11,069 nt of DNA from a virus (Duplodnaviria; Heunggongvirae; Uroviricota; Caudoviricetes). The notes beneath the pieces were generated by a model that ran no database searches, was not told the DNA's origin, and worked only from the letters and a program-made list of their open reading frames with translations. Location: the IMG/VR virus record IMGVR_UViG_2711768070_000020; one strand, written 5' to 3'. Position 1 is the first letter of the stretch; every line of letters begins with the position of its first letter. Position numbers and translations under genes: made by a program. Shown here piece by piece: positions 4,639 through 11,069 of the stretch.

Positions 4639-4728
4639 ACGATCGGTGCGATTGCTGATTTCCTTATGAAAAACGGTTGAGTGTTTGCCGCGTCCTGGAG
4701 TTCCTTACTTAACTTCAGGACTTTTTTT

Positions 4729-5886
4729 ATGCCGAGAATAATCGAATTACGCCAGCAGAAAACCGCCATTAAAAATCAGATGCGCGACATGCTGGAGAAC
4801 GCGGAAAAAGAAAACCGCAGCCTTAACGATGCTGAGGGCGCAAAATTTGACGAATTACGCGCTAAAGCTGAATCCCTCGATAAAGACATCTCCCGCCTTG
4901 AGGCCGTTGCTGACGAAGAGCGCAGTAAACCAGGCAAAAACAGCCAGACCACTGACCCCGCCGAACTACGTCACTACATTCTGACAGGTGAAACCCGCGC
5001 ATTGAGTACAGGCGTTCCCGCTGATGGTGGTTATACCGTTATCCCCGAACTGAACACCGAAATCATGCGAATGCTGACGGATGAATCCACCATGCGCCGC
5101 ATCTGTACCGTGAAGAAAATCAGCAGCAACGAGTTTAAGCAGCTTGTTTCCGCTGGCGGTGCGACCGTTAACCACGGTGAAGAGGGTAAGGCACGCGAAC
5201 AGACCAGCACCCCGCAGATTAACGAGGTGAGCATTAAGCTGTATCCGGTCTATGCGTACCCGCGCACCACGCAGGAAATCGTGGATTTTTCCGATGTGGA
5301 CATCCTTTCATGGCTGACGGGCGAGATTGGCGACACCTTCACGGAAACCGAAGAAAGCGATCTGGTTGTGGGCGACGGTGACAAAAAAGCAAAAGGTTTT
5401 TTATCCGTACCCCGTGCAGAGAAGAACGACAAAGAGCGTGATTTTGGTACGTTGCAGGTAATTAAACCTTCCGAATCTCTGGCGTGGACATCTGCGGACC
5501 CGCTGATCGACCTGAAATTTGCATTACGTAAAAAATACCGCAAAAACGCGGTTTGGGTGGTTAACTCCACGACGGCGGCAAAACTCCAGAAGGTGAAGAA
5601 CGCGAACGGTGATTACATCTGGCGCGACCGTTTACAGGCGGGTGATCCTGATACGTTGCTGGGCCTTCCGGTCGAATATCTGGAGTTTATGCCTGATAAC
5701 GTTATTGCCCTGGGTGACTTCAAACGCGGTTACTACATTGTTGATCACGAAACAGGTGTTCGCACCAGACCGGACAACCTCACAGAGCCGGGCTTTATCA
5801 AAATTTTCACGCAGAAATATTTAGGCGGTGGCGTGGTGGATTCGAACGCTATAAAGATTCTGGAACTGCCGCAGGACGACGATTAA
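4729..5886 (+). CDS. HK97-family major capsid protein with N-terminal coiled-coil delta (scaffold-like) domain (385 aa from ATG 4729; ORF opens at GTG 4681)
   Basis: AGGA ~9 nt upstream of ATG 4729. The charged helical N-terminus (ELRQQKTAIKNQMRDMLENAEKENRSLNDAEGAKFDELRAKAESLDKDISRLEAV) followed by a ~280-aa body is typical of HK97-type MCPs that carry their own scaffold domain. Genomic context with protease and portal supports the call. Confidence 0.85.
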   Translation: MPRIIELRQQKTAIKNQMRDMLENAEKENRSLNDAEGAKFDELRAKAESLDKDISRLEAVADEERSKPGKNSQTTDPAELRHYILTGETRALSTGVPADGGYTVIPELNTEIMRMLTDESTMRRICTVKKISSNEFKQLVSAGGATVNHGEEGKAREQTSTPQINEVSIKLYPVYAYPRTTQEIVDFSDVDILSWLTGEIGDTFTETEESDLVVGDGDKKAKGFLSVPRAEKNDKERDFGTLQVIKPSESLAWTSADPLIDLKFALRKKYRKNAVWVVNSTTAAKLQKVKNANGDYIWRDRLQAGDPDTLLGLPVEYLEFMPDNVIALGDFKRGYYIVDHETGVRTRPDNLTEPGFIKIFTQKYLGGGVVDSNAIKILELPQDDD

Positions 5887-5940: not shown

Positions 5941-6498
5941 ATGATGAGTATGGAAATCCGGTCATCGGAAATCACCACCAGCGGCAGCAACACGCTTACG
6001 GGCTACGTTGTTCGCTGGGATAACCTTTCAGAACTGCTATGGGGCGAATTTTACGAAAAATTCCAGCGGGGGGCGTTTACTGAATGGCTTGCGGTGGGTA
6101 ATGACGTTCGCGGCCTGTATGAGCATGACCACAGCATGTTACTGGGGCGCACCCGTTCCGGTACGCTGAGACTGGAAGAGGATGACACAGGGTTACGTTT
6201 TGAACTGATCCCACCGGATACCAGCACAGGGCGGGACGTTATCGAACTGGTTAAACGTGGTGACATCTCGGGCATGAGCTTTGGCTTTCGTTCCCGTAAG
6301 GATGTATGGGATACGACAGTCGATCCATGTGTGCGTACTGTACTGATAGCGGAACTGTACGAAATTACCGTGACATCCGTACCGGCTTACCCTGATTCCG
6401 GCGTGGAGCTGGCCCGCCGTTCCCTGTATGAGCAGCACCCTGAAAAAATGCCTCGTGCGGATAATCGCCGCTGGTGGGCGGATTTAGCGGGGGTGTGA
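5941..6498 (+). CDS. HK97-family prohead (head maturation) protease, S78/U35 type (185 aa)
   Basis: AGGTGA RBS 8 nt upstream of the ATG. Sequence pattern (LTGYVVRWDNLSE..., GLYEHDHSMLLGRT, ISGMSFGF, ITVTSVPAYPDS) is typical of HK97-type prohead proteases. Positioned between capsid and portal genes. Confidence 0.8.
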   Translation: MMSMEIRSSEITTSGSNTLTGYVVRWDNLSELLWGEFYEKFQRGAFTEWLAVGNDVRGLYEHDHSMLLGRTRSGTLRLEEDDTGLRFELIPPDTSTGRDVIELVKRGDISGMSFGFRSRKDVWDTTVDPCVRTVLIAELYEITVTSVPAYPDSGVELARRSLYEQHPEKMPRADNRRWWADLAGV

Positions 6499-6499
6499 T

Positions 6500-7711
6500 A
6501 TGTGGCCTTTCAGAAGAAAAAAAGAGCAGCGCAGCATGACGCTTGATGAGTTTATGGCGCTGGCTGGCACATCGAACACGGGGGCGGGTGAGTACGTATC
6601 ATCGGGGACAGCGGAATCACTGCCCGCCGTCATGAACGCCGTCACGGTCATCTCTGAGGCGGTGGCTACCATGCCGTGTTACCTGTACCTGGTACGCAAT
6701 GAGAAGGGGAAGGAGGCCCGAGAGTGGCTTGATTCTCATCCGGTCGATCACATCCTCAACGAGCGCCCGAACGCATGGCAAACCCCCTACCAGTTTAAGC
6801 GAATGATGATCCGCCACTGCCTGTTAAACGGTAATGCTTATGCGGTGATTCGGTGGGGGCGTGATGGTTTTCCGGTGGCTTTACATCCTTACCCGCCGCA
6901 GTCGGTGAACGTGGAGCAGACAGGTGAGCATAACTGGCGCTACTGCATCACTGACGCCTACACCGGAAACACCCGCAACTATTTACCGTGGGAGGTTCTC
7001 CACCTTCGTTACTCCACGGATGACGGTTTTATGGGGCGCTCACCTGTAACCATCTGCCGCGAATCGCTGGGGCTTGGGCTGGCCCAACAACGCCACGGCG
7101 CGAGCGTGATGCGTGATGGCATGATGGCGGCAGGGGTTATCACGTCAGGCGAGTGGCTGGACGGCGTGAAGGGTAAACAGGCATTAGCCGCACTGGAACG
7201 CTACAAAGGGGCCAGAAACGCCGGAAAAACGCCCATCCTTGAAGGGGGTATGAGCTATCAGCAGCTGGGCATGAGTAATCAGGATGCTGAATGGCTGGCC
7301 TCCCGTCGCTTCACCATTGAAGACATCGCCCGAATGTTCAACGTCTCGCCGATTTTTTTGCAGGAATACAGCAACAGCACCTACAGCAATTTCAGCGAGG
7401 CAAGCCGCGCATTTCTCACCATGACGATGCGCCCGTGGCTGGCGAACTTTGAGCAGCAGATAAAAAACGCCCTGCTGGTGGCCTCGCCTGTACCTGGTAT
7501 CCGGTATCAGGTGGAGTTTGACAGCGCGGACCTGTTACGGGCCACACCTGGCGAACGCTTTGCCACCTATGAACGCGGCATCAAATCCGGCGTTATGTGC
7601 CCGAACGAAGCCCGCGAACGTGAAGGGCTGTCCCCGCGTGATGGTGGTGATGAGTTCAGCCAGGCATGGAAACAGGAAGTAAAAATCAGCGAGGGAGAAA
7701 AACCGGAATGA
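6500..7711 (+). CDS. HK97-family portal protein (403 aa; possible alternative start at ATG 6536)
   Basis: ~400-aa ORF starting 2 nt after the protease stop. Size, position and pattern (NAVTVISEAVATMP..., NGNAYAVIRW, RMFNVSPIFLQEYSNSTYSNF) fit phage portal proteins. Confidence 0.8.
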   Translation: MWPFRRKKEQRSMTLDEFMALAGTSNTGAGEYVSSGTAESLPAVMNAVTVISEAVATMPCYLYLVRNEKGKEAREWLDSHPVDHILNERPNAWQTPYQFKRMMIRHCLLNGNAYAVIRWGRDGFPVALHPYPPQSVNVEQTGEHNWRYCITDAYTGNTRNYLPWEVLHLRYSTDDGFMGRSPVTICRESLGLGLAQQRHGASVMRDGMMAAGVITSGEWLDGVKGKQALAALERYKGARNAGKTPILEGGMSYQQLGMSNQDAEWLASRRFTIEDIARMFNVSPIFLQEYSNSTYSNFSEASRAFLTMTMRPWLANFEQQIKNALLVASPVPGIRYQVEFDSADLLRATPGERFATYERGIKSGVMCPNEAREREGLSPRDGGDEFSQAWKQEVKISEGEKPE

Positions 7712-8046
7712 ACATAGGGCGACTGCGTGACAGGATAACGATTCAGACCCTGAAACAGACCAGGGATATAACCGGCGAAATACTCGAAACGTGGGTGGAC
7801 GGTCACACACTCTGGGCAAGCGTGAACATGATCAGCAGCAAGGAGGCCATTTCATCGGGTGCAGAACTGGCGACTGGAACGGTAAGGATATGGATACGCT
7901 ACAGGAAGGACATCAACGCCACCAGCCGGATAAAGGTCAATACGGGGCCGCTGGCGGGGCGTGTACTGAATATCATCGGGCAGCCGCTGCCGGATGCCGC
8001 CAGGACACGCCTTGAAATTCTTTGTCGTGAGGGCGCGGAAAAATGA
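7708..8046 (+). CDS. Phage head-closure / head-tail joining protein (SPP1 gp16-like family, 112 aa)
   Basis: ATG at 7708 overlaps the portal TGA (ATGA at 7708-7711); ORF track opens further upstream at 7666. MNIGRLRDRITIQ...TRDITGEILETW...WASV...RIWIRYRKDI...LNIIG matches the characteristic pattern of head-closure proteins. Confidence 0.75.
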   Translation: MNIGRLRDRITIQTLKQTRDITGEILETWVDGHTLWASVNMISSKEAISSGAELATGTVRIWIRYRKDINATSRIKVNTGPLAGRVLNIIGQPLPDAARTRLEILCREGAEK

Positions 8047-8339
8047 CAGAAGAACTTATCACCCTGGAAGAAGTGAAACTCCATTGCCGCATCGATGGCG
8101 ACGAGGAAGACCAGTTAATCAGCGGATACATCGCCGCATCGCTTGAGGCGTGCCAGATACACATAGGCAGGCGCTTTGATGACGGGCTGGAGTTCACGCC
8201 AGCCATAAAGATTGGCTGCATGATGTTTATCGCTCACCTGTATGAAAATCGCCAGATTGTCGCGGATAACGCAAAAACACGCGTACCCATGACGATTGGT
8301 GCACTCTGGACGGCTTACCGTGATGTGGGGGTGTACTGA
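8043..8339 (+). CDS. Head-tail connector protein (gp6-like, 98 aa)
   Basis: ATGA overlap with the upstream gene. The N-terminus ITLEEVKLHCRIDGDEEDQLISGYIAASLEA matches the typical gp6-like connector pattern. Confidence 0.75.
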   Translation: MTEELITLEEVKLHCRIDGDEEDQLISGYIAASLEACQIHIGRRFDDGLEFTPAIKIGCMMFIAHLYENRQIVADNAKTRVPMTIGALWTAYRDVGVY

Positions 8340-8779
8340 TGCCGTGGCAACCATTAAGACGATGCACAGAACCAGGCTGTAACAGGCGCGTGGAGTCCGG
8401 CAAGTGTGAGGAGCACAGGCGGGCGGCATGGCGTGCAGAGGATGCCAGACGAGGACACCGCCGCGCGCGTGGGTACTCCAGACAGTGGGACAAATACCGC
8501 GCCATGTATCTGAGTAAAAACCCGTTATGCGTGCGATGCCTTGAGAAGGGGATATATACGCCCGCCGTGGTGGTGGATCACATTATCCCGATTAATGGCG
8601 GTGATGATGTTCTCTTCTGGCCCGAATGGAACCATCAGCCATTGTGCCAGGCGTGCCATAACCAGAAAACGAAATGGCTTGATCCGGCAACAAAAAGCAA
8701 GCGTGCCGCAGGTGGATTTCGTGAAGAGGAAGAACGGGCCGCTAACCGCAATAACTGGATGTATGACGCTGATGAATGA
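8339..8779 (+). CDS. Phage-associated HNH endonuclease (146 aa), packaging-associated
   Basis: Start overlaps the connector stop by 1 nt. Cys-rich with an HNH core (CVRCLEKG...VVDHIIPINGGDD...NHQPLCQACHNQKT). Located immediately upstream of terS/terL, as in HK97-like cos packaging modules. Confidence 0.85.
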   Translation: MPWQPLRRCTEPGCNRRVESGKCEEHRRAAWRAEDARRGHRRARGYSRQWDKYRAMYLSKNPLCVRCLEKGIYTPAVVVDHIIPINGGDDVLFWPEWNHQPLCQACHNQKTKWLDPATKSKRAAGGFREEEERAANRNNWMYDADE

Positions 8780-8945
8780 GCGGGAACAAAACCGCCTTAT
8801 CCGTGGACTTATAAGGCAGCGTGACGCATGGAAGACACAGGAAACAGGGCATAAAGATAAAGCGTCAGGACGCGCAGAACGCATCACAGCGAAGCGATTA
8901 ACCGACCGTGACTGCGAGGTTATGGAATGTTTCCGCAATCGCTGA
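8763..8945 (+). CDS. Possible small basic protein (60 aa) overlapping the 3' end of the HNH gene
   Basis: Downstream part of six-frame ORF 8541..8945, taken from ATG 8763 (alternative ATG 8772). Fills the space between HNH and the putative cos region. No RBS or family support; could be non-coding. Confidence 0.25.
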   Translation: MTLMNEREQNRLIRGLIRQRDAWKTQETGHKDKASGRAERITAKRLTDRDCEVMECFRNR

Positions 8946-9067
8946 TGAGGCTGTATGACGGGGTGGGGGGCGTTTTCAGGACAAACCCGCCCCCGCCGGG
9001 CACCGAACGCCTCCTCAAATTTTTATGCACGGGAATTTTTTGAAAAATAATCTGACGAAAAATAAAC
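8946..9067. other. Putative cos/packaging-initiation region: GC-rich dyad followed by an AT-rich tract upstream of terS
   Basis: G-run ACGGGGTGGGGGGCG (~8958-8972) and C-run CCCGCCCCCGCCGGG (8986-9000) contain a 7-bp dyad GGGGGCG/CGCCCCC (8966-8972 / 8988-8994). This is followed by A/T-rich AAATTTTTATGCACGGGAATTTTTTGAAAAATAATCTGACGAAAAATAAACA. Lies between HNH and terS, where cos sites are found in HNH-terminase systems. Confidence 0.45.
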
Positions 9068-9424
9068 ATGGCAAGACCACCGAAAGCCCCCGCCTACCTT
9101 GATGACATCGCCGTAAAGCAGTGGCGGGAAAAATCGCGCCAGCTTGCGGAACGGGGAGACCTCACCCCCGCCGACTGGAGTAATCTCGAACTGTATTGCG
9201 TCAACTACTCGATATACAGGAAAGCCGTCGCAGACCTTGCGGCACGCGGGTTCAGCATTGTTAACAGTCAGGGCGGAGAGAGCAGAAACCCCGCATTAAG
9301 CGCGAAATCCGACGCTGAAAGAGTGATGATAAAAATGGCCTCCTTGCTTGGTTTTGACCCGATAAGCCGCCGTAAAAATCCACCGGAAACAGAAGAAGAG
9401 GACGAGCTTGACCACCTGGAATAA
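9068..9424 (+). CDS. terS: Terminase small subunit, P27 family (118 aa)
   Basis: MARPPKAPAYLDD...W...LAERGDLTPADWSNLELYCVNYSIYRKA...SAKSDAERVMIKMASLLGFDPISRRK follows the characteristic P27-family TerS pattern. Directly upstream of terL. Confidence 0.85.
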   Translation: MARPPKAPAYLDDIAVKQWREKSRQLAERGDLTPADWSNLELYCVNYSIYRKAVADLAARGFSIVNSQGGESRNPALSAKSDAERVMIKMASLLGFDPISRRKNPPETEEEDELDHLE

Positions 9425-11069
9425 GTACGCAGAAGACGTAAAAACGGGCAAAATTCCGGCCTGTAAACGGTTAAAACAGGCCGTTAAACGGTACTTTTCG
9501 GACCTTAAAAGTCCCCTTTACACGTTCGATAGTGAGGTTGTGGAGCGGTTTATTGCCTTTTCAAGGGTGTGCCCGCACGTAAAAGGGCCGTTGCGTGGCA
9601 GACCCATTGAGCTGGAGCCGTGGCAGCAGTTCGCCTTTGCGTGCATCCTGGGTTTTAAGGTTAAGGCCACCGGACGGCGCAAATACTCGAGCGCTTTTAT
9701 CGAAGTACCGCGAAAAAATGCGAAATCCACGACCGCCGCGATTCTGGCTGACTGGTTTCTGATTATGGAGAACGGGCAGCAGGATATTTACACCGCAGCG
9801 GTGAGCCGTGACCAGGCACGGATCGTGTTTGATGATGCGCGTCAGATGTGCCTTTTATCCCGACCGTTACGCAGGCGGGTGAATATTCAGGCCCACAAGG
9901 TGATACACCCGAAAACCAACAGCCTGTTAAAGCCGCTGGCAGCAAAAGCGGCAACCATCGAGGGGACAAACCCGAGTCTTGCCATTGTGGACGAATATCA
10001 CCTGCACCCCGATAACGGCGTTTATTCCGCGCTTGAGCTGGGGATGGGTGCACGTCCCGAAGGGCTGTTATTTGCCATTACCACATCGGGAAGTAACGTC
10101 GTTTCAGCCTGTAAGCAGCACTATGATTATTGCTGCCAGATCCTGGACGGCGAAGAGGTCAACGAATCGCTTTTTGTGCTGATTTACGAGCTGGACGATG
10201 AAAACGAGGTTGACGATCCGGCGATGTGGATAAAGGCGAATCCCAATATCGATGTTTCCGTTGATCGTGAAAAACTGGCCTCAACCATCCAGAAAGCGCG
10301 GGGTATTCCGTCGCAGTGGGTGGAGATGATGACAAAGCGGTTTAACATCTGGTGCCAGGGGGCCACCCCGTGGATGGGTAACGGGGCGTGGGCTGAGTGT
10401 GCCGGAACGTTCACAGAGGAAGATTTACACGGCCAGGAATGTTACGCGGGGCTTGATTTGTCATCCACAAGCGACATTTCCAGCGTGTGCTATGCCTTTC
10501 CGGTCGGCAAAAAAATTATGCTGCTTTCCCGTCACTATCTGCCGGAATTTCAGCTACAGAACCCCGCCAACAAGAACCGGGCCATTTATCGCCAGTGGGC
10601 TAAATCGGGCTGGTTGCGGATAACGCCGGGCGACTGCATTGATTACGACCGGATCCGCGATGACATCATGGAGGACGCGGAAAAATTTGATATCAGGCTG
10701 GTGGGCTTTGATACGTGGAACGCCACGCATCTCAGGACGCAATTACAGGGGGCAGGGTTTGAGGTTGAGCCGTTCCCGCAAACCTATCTGAGATTCAGTC
10801 CGGCGGCGAAATCGTTCGAAGTTTTTGTTAACCGCAGGGTGATAGTCCATCGTGATGATCCGGTGTTGTCGTGGTCGATGAGTAACGTCGTGATGCAGAG
10901 TGACGCGAACGCCAATATCAAGCCAAACAAGAAAAAATCACCGAACAAGATAGACCCGAGCGTGGCGGCACTGATGGCGTTTGGCACATTCCAGGCAGAG
11001 CATGAAGATTTTGCTTTTGATATAAGCGACAGCCACCGCGAAAAACTGGAAGAATTTAACGGGGTGTGA
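9408..11069 (+). CDS. terL: Terminase large subunit (Terminase_1/HK97-like, 553 aa); apparent TTG start overlapping terS by 17 nt
   Basis: Walker A-like PRKNAKSTTAA, Walker B-like IVDEYH, and a C-terminal nuclease-like region. N-terminus TTWNKYAEDVKTGKIPACKRLKQAVKRYFSDL is typical of TerL. First in-frame start is TTG at 9408 with GAGGAC 5 nt upstream. Stop TGA at 11067-11069 is the last triplet of the window. Confidence 0.9.
   Translation: MTTWNKYAEDVKTGKIPACKRLKQAVKRYFSDLKSPLYTFDSEVVERFIAFSRVCPHVKGPLRGRPIELEPWQQFAFACILGFKVKATGRRKYSSAFIEVPRKNAKSTTAAILADWFLIMENGQQDIYTAAVSRDQARIVFDDARQMCLLSRPLRRRVNIQAHKVIHPKTNSLLKPLAAKAATIEGTNPSLAIVDEYHLHPDNGVYSALELGMGARPEGLLFAITTSGSNVVSACKQHYDYCCQILDGEEVNESLFVLIYELDDENEVDDPAMWIKANPNIDVSVDREKLASTIQKARGIPSQWVEMMTKRFNIWCQGATPWMGNGAWAECAGTFTEEDLHGQECYAGLDLSSTSDISSVCYAFPVGKKIMLLSRHYLPEFQLQNPANKNRAIYRQWAKSGWLRITPGDCIDYDRIRDDIMEDAEKFDIRLVGFDTWNATHLRTQLQGAGFEVEPFPQTYLRFSPAAKSFEVFVNRRVIVHRDDPVLSWSMSNVVMQSDANANIKPNKKKSPNKIDPSVAALMAFGTFQAEHEDFAFDISDSHREKLEEFNGV

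Follow-up and report, generated by a model that had tools for sequence, protein, structure and literature searches.

A probable cos site upstream of terS in an EcCIEDL933-like capsid-forming PICI of E. coli

For phage SfI, run-off sequencing of virion DNA gave a 10-nt gap and identified TGCCCGCCCC as the cohesive end (PMC3636060); the same 10-mer occupies positions 8-17 of the SfV record. For HK97, the minimal TerS site was placed at +15 to +29, with the sequence CTAACCCGATTTTTT (PMC11331095), and the last 10 nt of the HK97 record are CGCCGCCAAA. The capsid-forming PICIs (cf-PICIs) are widespread satellites that travel between species as tail-less capsids. According to two preprints (bioRxiv 10.1101/2022.09.08.507074, 10.1101/2025.02.11.637232), they require their own packaging genes and their packaging is cos-type and exclusive; in one of these, He et al. 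report cohesive-end concatemers of packaged cf-PICI DNA. This exclusive packaging depends on a cos site that both preprints left unlocated, giving neither its coordinates nor its sequence.

The window, that is, the whole stretch of 11,069 nucleotides analysed here, belongs to an EcCIEDL933-like cf-PICI of E. coli. According to Pfam and RefSeq annotation, its gene content agrees with the cf-PICI criteria of He et al. The element encodes an integrase, regulators, a DUF927 primase, capsid, protease, portal, a head completion protein and a connector, and its packaging end comprises HNH, a small ORF, TerS and TerL. No tail or lysis genes were found in the element. It measures about 15 kb, its insertion site adjoins thiM, and it was found in 533 of 5426 complete E. 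coli genomes (about 10%), O157:H7 strains included; the gene content, size and distribution thus match the published cf-PICIs. Gene content, order and size are as in EcCIEDL933, EcCIGN02175 and KpCIDSM30104 (Penades laboratory), and the O157:H7 copies are about 98% identical to the window in the region studied. The genes at the packaging end are as follows.

8339-8779, + strand: HNH endonuclease gene (packaging accessory nuclease; Pfam HNH PF01844; phrog_144)
8763-8945, + strand: small conserved ORF of 60 aa between HNH and the proposed cos (phrog_3173, E 4e-36)
9068-9424, + strand: terS, small terminase, P27 / Terminase_4 family (Pfam PF05119, E 1e-23)
9408-11069, + strand: terL, large terminase, which runs past the window end (Pfam TerL_ATPase and TerL_nuclease)

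A preliminary description had proposed that the 122-bp gap between HNH and terS is the element's own HK97-like cos. The length of 122 bp and the terS start at 9068 were confirmed, whereas the left neighbour is the 60-aa ORF, as the HNH gene ends at 8779. The stop codon of this ORF forms the left edge of the gap; RefSeq labels its product hypothetical, and its C-terminal coding sequence is kept in many genera. The central proposal was upheld by the gene context, by homology to a mapped cos and by assembly breaks in relatives. We estimate a probability of roughly 0.85 that the gap 8946-9067 is the cos of this EcCIEDL933-like cf-PICI, cut and packaged by its own TerS/TerL/HNH machine.

The gene context is that of an HNH-dependent cos of the HK97/SfV type, with adjoining HNH, TerS and HK97-class TerL genes. 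In BLASTP, the element HNH was 39% identical to HK97 gp74 (E 3e-19) and 37% identical to SfV orf53 (E 5e-17). The element TerL shares 28% identity with HK97 gp2 over about 500 aa (E 2e-48), which is a full-length homology. The element TerS is 36% identical to SfV TerS (E 4e-21), and protein comparison detected no similarity between it and HK97 gp1.

The layout of the gap, described previously as G-rich, then C-rich, then A/T-rich, is present in the sequence: GGGGTGGGGGG at 8960-8970, a C-rich segment at 8986-8997, and A/T runs at 9017-9026, 9034-9049 and 9058-9066. From the comparisons below, the gap was divided into the following parts.

8959-8985, + strand: G-box CGGGGTGGGGGGCGTTTTCAGGACAAA, a conserved upstream subsite, with the predicted top-strand nick about 41-43 nt to its 3' side; this box holds the left arm (8966-8972) of a 7-bp dyad
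8986-8997, + strand: spacer CCCGCCCCCGCC, of fixed length and free sequence; it holds the right arm (8988-8994) of the dyad
8998-9003, + strand: GGGCAC, directly 5' of the predicted bottom-strand nick 9003/9004 (consensus GGnAC, in which A and C each reach at least 90%)
9004-9013, + strand: predicted 10-nt cohesive end (cosN equivalent) CGAACGCCTC, aligned with the mapped SfI end
9014-9026, + strand: CTC and first A/T run AAATTTTTAT, +1 to +13 of the predicted left end
9027-9042, + strand: predicted TerS recognition site, GCACGGG and AATTTTTTG, about +14 to +29 (identity 0.80-0.84 across genera)
9043-9052, + strand: conserved A-rich tail AAAAATAATC (family consensus GAAAATAAAAC), which closes the conserved block

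For the conservation footprint, 31 distinct sequences from about 30 genera were compared, with mean pairwise identity as the score. The G-box scored 0.74, and 18 of 30 columns reached at least 90%. The block 8998-9052, which contains the C-rich 10-mer (9004-9013) and, after it, GCACGGG flanked by two T-runs, scored 0.82. For comparison, the third codon positions of terS scored 0.52 and positions 1 and 2 scored 0.87. The G-box and the block are conserved as strongly as amino-acid-determining codon positions, far above chance. The most conserved gap segment is 9014-9026 (identity 0.91), which is common to SfV, ST64B, Psymv2, Mcat17 and Pmp8. Between the two conserved regions, the spacer 8986-8997 had a mean pairwise identity of 0.39; no column reached 90%, and indels were practically absent. 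Its sequence differs even among close E. coli relatives. The spacing between the conserved boxes was constant across the set.

Conservation in an A/T-rich intergenic region directly 5' of terS could also mark a control region for terS-terL (late promoter, activator, attenuator or RBS context), with the cos elsewhere, and an internal regulatory role could coexist with a cos. As the main explanation of the conserved blocks, this reading is highly unlikely. No sigma-70-like promoter was found on the + strand of the gap, nor was an intrinsic terminator or conserved hairpin, since there is no + strand terminator in the gap and the arms are unconserved. Rfam covariance models gave no match at E <= 1 across 8700-9300. 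The RBS region, the 15 nt beside the terS start codon, had an identity of only 0.47, the opposite of what an RBS or leader predicts. Additionally, the assembly breaks fall at the conserved part, which shares homology with a mapped cos.

The homology to the experimentally mapped cos is evident when the SfV/SfI sequence, the cf-PICI consensus and the window are aligned from the junction through the downstream A/T tract.

SfV/SfI: GGAC, TGCCCGCCCC, ATCGTTTTTTTAT, ACCCGCG, AAAAATG
cf-PICI consensus: GCAC, CACCCGCCCC, CTCAAATTTTTAC, GCACGGTGA, TTTTTTT
Window: GCAC, CGAACGCCTC, CTCAAATTTTTAT, GCACGGGAA, TTTTTT

Around the mapped 10-nt end, 19 of 21 positions match between ST64B (CCCGCCCCCTCGAATTTTTAT) and the cf-PICI consensus (CCCGCCCCCTCAAATTTTTAC). 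The window 10-mer itself matches the mapped end at 6 of 10 positions, with conserved flanks, and departs at 3 of 10 positions from the family consensus, C(A/G)CCCGCCCC. SfI, SfV, SfII, SfIV and ST64B share with the element a P27-family TerS and a homologous HNH (36-37% identity), a gap of 125-128 bp between the upstream ORF and terS (122 bp in the window), and the same box order: G-box, about 31 nt, C-rich 10-mer, T-run, GC-rich heptamer and A/T tract. They differ in the 10-mer, TGCCCGCCCC against CGAACGCCTC in the window, and at +14 to +29, where the window has GCACGGGAATTTTTT and the SfV type has ACCCGCGAAAAAT, its A/T tract lying on the other strand. Moreover, SfV TerS has an N-terminal extension of about 45 aa that the element TerS lacks, and the carrier is a phage of 37-40 kb, whereas the window element is a 15-kb satellite.

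HK97 matches the window in geometry, with different sequences. Its last 10 nt align with the predicted cohesive end 9004-9013, and the counterpart of its TerS site (+15 to +29) is window 9028-9042, both consisting of a GC triplet followed by an A/T tract. The likeness extends to the homologous HNH and TerL, a G-box 42 nt upstream of the nick, AC followed by a C-rich 10-mer at the junction, and a site tens of nt upstream of terS. In contrast, the 10-mer and TerS-site sequences are not those of the window, the TerS proteins lack detectable similarity, and the distance from the HNH gene to the right end is 319 bp in HK97 and about 230 bp, with an extra ORF, in the window. HK106 has a cos identical to that of HK97, and the published cf-PICI helpers HK106 and HK446 both carry the HK97 cos. 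The earlier suggestion that the packaging signal could differ from that of the helper was therefore borne out in the cohesive-end and TerS-site sequences, and these differences agree with published work in which helper and cf-PICI packaging exclude each other. KpCIDSM30104 has the same cos blocks as the window.

The predicted nicks rest on the geometry that these systems share. From the end of the G-box to the top nick, we counted 41-42 nt in both mapped systems (HK97 and SfV), and the same count from the window G-box places the top nick at 9013/9014. An equivalent G-box at the same distance occurs in HK97, SfV, ST64B, Klebsiella phi6.3, Psymv2, Mcat17 and Pae D14E; the overall spacing is also kept in KpCIDSM30104, Pmp8, ST64B, phi6.3, Psymv2 and Mcat17. 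Counted from the G-box, A/T runs occupy +44 to +48 and +60 to +65 in every system compared. The junction context is common as well, with TGAC in HK97, GGAC in SfV and GCAC in cf-PICIs, each just before the cut. By alignment, the element would be nicked at 9003/9004 on the bottom strand and at 9013/9014 on the top strand. The resulting 10-nt end is probably 3'-protruding, a polarity taken from HK97 (PMC9410871, PMC11331095) and from our reading of the SfI 'gap' result (PMC3636060). TerS is predicted to bind at about 9028-9042, downstream of the cut, a prediction based on the HK97 position and on the strong conservation of 9027-9042; the assignment is an analogy, because the element TerS and HK97 TerS are not homologous. 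The subsite anatomy and the predicted nicks of a cf-PICI cos are newly derived here.

A different position for the cut was considered in the upstream C-run 8986-8995. On this reading, the G/C dyad would be what is recognised or cleaved, perhaps after extrusion as a hairpin or cruciform. The dyad had been noticed in the preliminary description. It exists as a perfect inverted repeat, GGGGGCG (8966-8972) and CGCCCCC (8988-8994), at chance level and with unconserved arms. Positions 8986-8993 read CCCGCCCC, identical at 8/8 positions to the core of the cohesive end mapped in SfI. Across genera, short spacer C-runs able to pair with the G-box are weakly over-represented: 59% of sequences have stems of at least 5 bp, compared with 24% of shuffles, although common descent of the sequences keeps this from being an independent test. 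In SfV and ST64B, the G-box/C-box inverted repeat is exact (GGGGCGGG / CCCGCCCC). As a true inverted repeat in cf-PICIs, the pair was rejected, as complementarity stays at the level of base composition (mean stem 5.6 observed, 6.1 shuffled).

The dyad as a functional hairpin was rejected on the following results. Among dinucleotide shuffles of the gap, 24.5% contained a perfect inverted repeat of 7 bp with a loop of 3-30 nt, and the 11-kb window has 23 such repeats. Folded as single-stranded DNA, 8955-9020 was no more stable than shuffles (z = 0.15). The right arm falls within the variable spacer (about 30 genera) and is CGACCCC in most E. coli relatives of about 98% identity. In a clade of 84% identity, the left arm is GGGGAGG or GGGGTGG and the right arm CGTCCCT, with compensating changes absent.

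A cut in the upstream C-run is very unlikely on further grounds. No other part of the gap is as poorly conserved as this run (identity 0.39); it is already CCCGACCCC in relatives of about 98% identity and unrelated in K. pneumoniae, Pluralibacter and Pantoea. It lies only 16-25 nt from the G-box, compared with 41-42 nt in the mapped systems, and the physical ends described below fall downstream of it, namely one 15.5-kb contig end and the midpoints of both assembly gaps. The likely cut is 10-45 nt further 3' than the dyad, in the second C-rich segment 9004-9013. The functional parts of the gap are very probably the three conserved boxes common to SfV/ST64B and HK97, and not the 7-bp GC dyad.

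Physical-end data came from three particle- or virome-derived assemblies, all of relatives at 70-90% DNA identity to the window element. The genome of vB_KppS-Ant, which is the KpCIDSM30104 element, was assembled from particle DNA with Nextera XT and SPAdes (PMC8006926). It is 100% identical to the island of K. pneumoniae ATCC 13883 / DSM 30104, minus exactly 69 nt, and the missing 69 nt correspond to window 8983-9051. Additionally, the last 15.86 kb of PQ569648.1 (P12620-1) are a cf-PICI, and both of its ends flank the same gap. The two assembly gaps (69 and 134 nt) bracket the ends and are not exact termini. A sharper end was provided by the 15,518-bp contig IMGVR_UViG_3300022664_000095, which has a true end at ...AAGGCAC. 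Its three closest relatives continue straight into the 10-mer at this point, so the end corresponds to the predicted bottom-strand nick. Blunting of a 3' overhang would leave an end at this place, just ahead of the 10-mer, and the other end of the contig is predicted to start with CTCAAATTTTTA. We roughly estimate a chance of about 3% that, among the 143 stretches examined, a random contig end would fall within 1 nt of the prediction; the match concerns one contig end and is a single coincidence.

Three other sources of ends or sequence were set aside. Most IMG/VR contig ends are prophage predictions cut out of genome assemblies and hence uninformative as termini. The metagenome stretch L256 begins at CAAATTTTT, 2 nt past the predicted nick; it is positions 1-2409 of 22,479 and not a contig end. 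Upstream of terS, our stretch of P12620-1 (L086) has a chimeric junction and yields no cos sequence.

The same data bear on whether the gap is a pac site for headful packaging, as pac phages too typically have TerS recognition sites near terS. We consider this extremely improbable. The element has an HK97-class TerL together with a packaging-type HNH. In the relatives, circularly permuted, terminally redundant DNA was not found; their particle-derived assemblies are linear with a defined break in the gap, not circularly closed, and one unit-length contig terminates at the predicted nick. The cohesive-end concatemers of packaged cf-PICI DNA reported by He et al. and the homology of the gap to a mapped cos also oppose headful packaging.

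Under the cos reading, TerS/TerL/HNH would cut replicated concatemers into unit-length genomes and package these in the small cf-PICI capsids. Three conserved parts would make up the site: the G-box 8959-8985, the C-rich cleavage segment and the downstream recognition segment, the last at about +14 to +29 with its T-run, GCACGGG and second T-run. By HK97 analogy, TerS would bind the deformable A/T-tract DNA there and position or stall TerL, upon which TerL and HNH would cut the cleavage segment; the staggered nicks 9003/9004 (bottom) and 9013/9014 (top) would leave the 10-nt 3' end CGAACGCCTC. The assignment of proteins to boxes and the function given to the G-box are inferences.

The arrangement resembles the lambda cos (cosQ-cosN-cosB), which likewise combines a nicking site with one element before it and a TerS-binding region after it, and which also lies directly upstream of the small terminase gene. 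Its terminase proteins belong to other families, and lambda has a 12-nt 5' overhang and IHF-assisted Nu1 binding to R sites, without an HNH. As a guess from this analogy, the G-box might be the functional equivalent of cosQ.

We tentatively propose, at somewhat less than even odds, that the G-box (GGGGNGGGGG and a short A/T-rich tail) is a third obligatory cos subsite for all HNH-dependent HK97-type terminases, with HK97 among them, held at a distance of about four helical turns (41-43 nt) on the 5' side of the nick, and that packaging exclusivity resides almost wholly in the +14 to +29 TerS site and the unrelated TerS. The G-box could act as a cosQ-like termination signal or as an HNH docking site. 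The recent HK97 structural papers examined contain no description of an upstream G-rich element, and the HK97 model system also has a conserved one. If the proposal is true, satellite and helper have the G-box and the cut-site type in common, and cf-PICI packaging specificity would be reprogrammable by a swap of about 16 bp together with terS. The base-level prediction opens to test how helper and satellite avoid cross-packaging, which protein pairs with which box, and whether small plasmids carrying about 100 bp of the site can be loaded into cf-PICI capsids.

The gap at 8946-9067, directly 5' of terS, was proposed in the preliminary description to be the element's own cos site, and this proposal is very probably right: the gap harbors a tripartite non-coding element that is conserved, homologous to a mapped cos site and coincident with assembly breaks in relatives. 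The genes of the window were assigned by Pfam, except for one small ORF:

678-2810, DUF927 primase
4681-5886, major capsid protein
5941-6498, S78 prohead protease
6500-7711, portal
7666-8046, head completion protein
8043-8339, gp6-like connector
8339-8779, HNH endonuclease
8763-8945, small ORF of 60 aa (phrog_3173, function not assigned), left boundary of the gap
9068-9424, P27/Terminase_4 small terminase (terS)
9408 to window end, large terminase (terL)

This gene architecture is the published layout of capsid-forming PICIs (cf-PICIs), with EcCIEDL933 as prototype (bioRxiv 10.1101/2022.09.08.507074; criteria in 10.1101/2025.02.11.637232). The segment 8300-9500 was found chromosomally in 533 of the 5426 complete E. 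coli genomes, with an identity of about 98% in strains of O157:H7 and O26:H11 and of 99.9% in strain 10671. The complete element of the latter strain forms an island of about 15 kb adjoining thiM, with integrase, regulators, Icd-like genes, primase, SSB, PerC-like regulator, capsid module, HNH, small ORF, TerS and TerL; no tail or lysis genes were found in this island. In the accessible text of the same two preprints, cf-PICIs are described as using their own HNH, TerS and TerL exclusively for their own DNA, cohesive-end concatemers are reported in one of them, and no cos coordinates are given.

The HNH gene had been named as the left neighbor of the gap, a position actually occupied by the 60-aa ORF, which overlaps the HNH gene 3' end by 17 nt and stops at the gap edge. 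Its C-terminal coding part (...ECFRNR) is kept in many enterobacterial cf-PICIs and absent from Xenorhabdus and Serratia, and Psychrobacter Psymv2 also has a small ORF at the equivalent position. This ORF may be a packaging accessory. The terS and terL genes share 17 nt (9408-9424), read in different frames; as listed, the terL ORF begins at a putative TTG start.

For the conservation analysis, we aligned 73 distinct E. coli copies with 84-100% identity and one at 70%. Invariant columns made up 5-35% of the small-ORF region 8779-8898 and 60-75% of 8959-9060, but 40% at 8979-8998. A TerS-based scan, restricted to one genome per species, resulted in 33 loci (TerS identity 68-99%) from Klebsiella, Citrobacter, Enterobacter, Kosakonia, Kluyvera, Serratia, Rahnella, Erwinia, Pantoea, Pectobacterium, Xenorhabdus, Aeromonas and others. 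The alignment of the 175 nt 5' of terS from these loci showed two blocks at constant spacing, with 12 nt of unconserved sequence between them. The consensus of the first block, the G-box, is GGGGTGGGGGAGGTTTTCAGGACAAA, and that of the second is GGnACC(A/G)CCCGCCCCCTCAAATTTTTACGCACGG(Y)(R)(W)TTTTTTTGAAAATAAAAC.

Mean pairwise identity in the gap and in terS
8959-8985, G-box, 0.74
8986-8997, spacer, 0.39
8998-9052, second conserved block, 0.82
9053-9067, RBS-proximal, 0.47
terS codon position 3, 0.52
terS codon positions 1+2, 0.87

The two non-coding blocks are therefore constrained like amino-acid-determining positions. The same cos blocks were found in the Pasteurella "phages" Pmp7 and Pmp8, which are cf-PICI-like, with a TerS 66% identical. 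Both Pmp8 (OR544139.1, 15.3 kb) and Pmp7 (OR544138.1, 10.7 kb) harbor primase, capsid module, HNH, TerS and TerL and no real tail module, which is the cf-PICI layout.

The window sequence confirmed the G-rich, C-rich and A/T-run composition described earlier (GGGGTGGGGGG at 8960-8970, CCCGCCCCCGCC at 8986-8997, A/T runs from 9017), as well as a perfect 7-bp dyad, GGGGGCG at 8966-8972 and CGCCCCC at 8988-8994. This dyad, which had been singled out as notable, is incidental. When the gap was shuffled with dinucleotides preserved, 24.5% of the shuffles had such a dyad, and the window has 23 of them. The DNA fold of 8955-9020 was no more stable than that of shuffles (z = 0.15), and the right arm falls in the sole unconstrained stretch. 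The arms are not conserved; the right arm is CGACCCC in most close E. coli relatives, and the 84% clade has GGGGAGG or GGGGTGG against CGTCCCT, with compensating changes absent. No terminator or + strand promoter was called in the gap, and Rfam gave no match for the gap region.

The putative cohesive end was located by comparison with the Shigella and Salmonella phages. The window TerS is 36-38% identical to those of SfV, SfI, SfII, SfIV and ST64B by tblastn (E 4e-21 against SfV by BLASTP), and its HNH shares 37% identity with SfV orf53. When the SfI virion DNA termini were sequenced directly, 10 nt of the prophage sequence, 5'-TGCCCGCCCC-3', were missing (PMC3636060); the packaging genes of SfI match those of SfV. 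In SfV and ST64B, 125 nt separate the HNH stop from the terS ATG (128 nt with the start codon), and the sequence reads ...GAGGGGAGGGGCGGGTCAAATC...CCGGAC^TGCCCGCCCC^(A/C)TCG(T/A)(T/A)TTTTTAT ACCCGCG AAAAATG..., with carets marking the 10-mer edges. The cf-PICI consensus aligns with it position by position, ...GCAC^CACCCGCCCC^CTCAAATTTTTAC GCACGGTGA TTTTTTT, and 19 of 21 positions match between CCCGCCCCCTCAAATTTTTAC and ST64B CCCGCCCCCTCGAATTTTTAT. The window reads GCAC^CGAACGCCTC^CTCAAATTTTTAT GCACGGGAA TTTTTT at the same place, which puts its predicted cohesive-end equivalent at 9004-9013.

In the E. coli lineage of the window, the conserved cosN position 9006-9013 has drifted to AACGCCTC. 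The normally variable spacer, 20 nt upstream, reads CCCGCCCC at 8986-8993, which is the cosN core in the family consensus and is already broken in the closest relatives (CCCGACCCC); this may be due to chance, the DNA being C-rich, or be a relic of a cut site that was shifted or duplicated. In SfV (stretches L089 839-851 and L088 8-17) and ST64B (L241/L240), 33 nt separate the G-box core GGGGCGGG from the cohesive-end core CCCGCCCC, and the two are perfectly reverse-complementary; the equivalent cf-PICI pairing, GGGGTGGG / CCCGCCCC, has one T-G mismatch. Across the family, this complementarity was not above base-composition expectation.

The same geometry was found in HK97, whose HNH (39%) and TerL (28% over about 500 aa, E 2e-48) are homologous to those of the window; no similarity was detectable between the window TerS and HK97 gp1. 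HK97 ends have 10-nt 3' overhangs, HNH gp74 stimulates cleavage, and TerS binds +15 to +29 (CTAACCCGATTTTTT), where it contacts a G:C pair beside a deformable A-tract (PMC11331095, PMC9410871). The HK97 record begins at the top-strand nick, and its right end reads ...CAGGGCAGGGGGGGGGATCAAATC...ATGAC^CGCCGCCAAA^, with the AC^ junction context and upstream G-box as in the window. With one regex definition for all systems, the distance from G-box end to nick was about 41-42 nt in HK97 and SfV, and 41 nt counted from the window G-box end (8972) led to 9013^9014. In every system examined, the G-box is followed by A/T runs at +44 to +48 and at +60 to +65. With +1 at 9014, the HK97 TerS-site interval would correspond to window 9028-9042, CACGGGAATTTTTTG, a putative TerS site by analogy only.

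This layout (G-box, about 30 nt, C-box, T-run, GC-rich motif and A/T tract) is present, too, in Klebsiella phage ST101-KPC2phi6.3, Psymv2 and Moraxella Mcat17, with a looser match in Pseudomonas vB_PaeS-D14E. The cos architecture is therefore widespread. The G-rich box of HK97 and relatives (HK97/HK106 right ends, L005 678-699 and L247 465-489) comprises GGGCAGGGGGGGGGG and ATCAAATC, about 41-42 nt 5' of the cos nick. In the accessible HK97 packaging papers, the TerS site is defined 3' of the cut, and this upstream G-rich element is not mentioned.

Candidate physical ends were seen in assemblies of relatives. The vB_KppS-Ant genome (LR881103, 16,548 bp) is a SPAdes assembly of Nextera XT reads, obtained with DNA from particles in lysates of K. 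pneumoniae DSM 30104, and was called a filamentous ssDNA prophage (PMC8006926). This strain is identical with ATCC 13883, host of KpCIDSM30104. Compared with the ATCC 13883 island (stretch L091), vB_KppS-Ant lacks exactly L091 2410-2478 and is 100% identical in the 1,500 nt to either side. These 69 nt run from just past the G-box to just past the conserved A-rich tail (window 8983-9051), and their midpoint is 2444 against a predicted cohesive end of 2431-2440. We interpret this gap as the under-representation of the last tens of bases of linear DNA in tagmentation libraries; a permuted headful genome would, in our interpretation, have assembled through this point. The vB_KppS-Ant record is the packaged cf-PICI KpCIDSM30104 with 69 bp absent at the cos site.

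In PQ569648.1 (106.5 kb), the final 15.86 kb is a cf-PICI 87-89% identical to KpCIDSM30104; it begins at terS nucleotide 2 and stops 134 nt upstream of that point, its ends flanking the same cos gap (midpoint 2434.5). This record, "Klebsiella phage P12620-1", is chimeric, the linearised cf-PICI (about 90644-106503) being joined abruptly at terS nucleotide 2 to unrelated sequence. Of 143 stretches with the G-box motif, a single one had a true contig end in the 120 nt that follow the motif: IMGVR_UViG_3300022664_000095 (15,518 bp, the cf-PICI unit size; stretch 14264-15518). It ends ...GGTTTTCAGGACAAAACCCAAGCCGCAAGGCAC, and the next bases in its three closest relatives (95-97% identical) are CACCCGCCCC CTCAAATTTTTA. 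The end of the contig thus coincides exactly with the predicted bottom-strand nick (window 9003^9004), which would be the expected right-end stop once library preparation removes the 3' overhang.

A metagenome stretch that seemed to begin 2 nt past the predicted nick was discarded, as it was not a contig end. The start of IMGVR_UViG_3300036783_000215 and the end of PQ569648.1, two unrelated assemblies, share a break just inside the small-ORF 3' end (L091-equivalent 2367/2368), about 65-75 nt 5' of the predicted nicks. Either chance or an effect on coverage or assembly that recurs close to the G-rich box may explain the shared position.

The suggestion that the element's packaging signal differs from the helper's was also supported. 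The EcCIEDL933 helpers are HK106 and HK446, whose terS is 100% identical to that of HK97; the cos regions of HK106 and HK97 are identical as well. Helper and window share the G-box, the AC^ C-rich 10-mer, and the GC triplet with T-tract; the 10-mers (CGCCGCCAAA against CGAACGCCTC) and TerS-site sequences differ, and the TerS proteins are unrelated. These differences fit the published lack of cross-reaction between helper and cf-PICI packaging systems (bioRxiv 10.1101/2022.09.08.507074).

In the packaging scheme that we propose, the excised island would replicate by rolling-circle or theta mode, and the cf-PICI TerS would bind the +14 to +29 segment (9027-9042). TerL and HNH would nick 9003^9004 (bottom) and 9013^9014 (top), leaving a 10-nt 3' cohesive end; we give these exact positions a probability of roughly 0.6. 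Translocation would proceed rightward through terS, terL, the att junction, int and then the capsid genes. At the next cos, the downstream-bound TerS would stall the motor and the terminal cut would follow, as proposed for HK97 (PMC11331095, PMC10359639). The G-box would enter the motor last, about 41 nt ahead of the cut, and, speculatively, is a candidate cosQ-like termination element or HNH/TerL docking site. The analysis adds a base-level cos prediction and the recognition of the conserved upstream G-box, and the predicted window cos is a typical and unexceptional member of the HK97/SfV-type cos family within a known satellite family.
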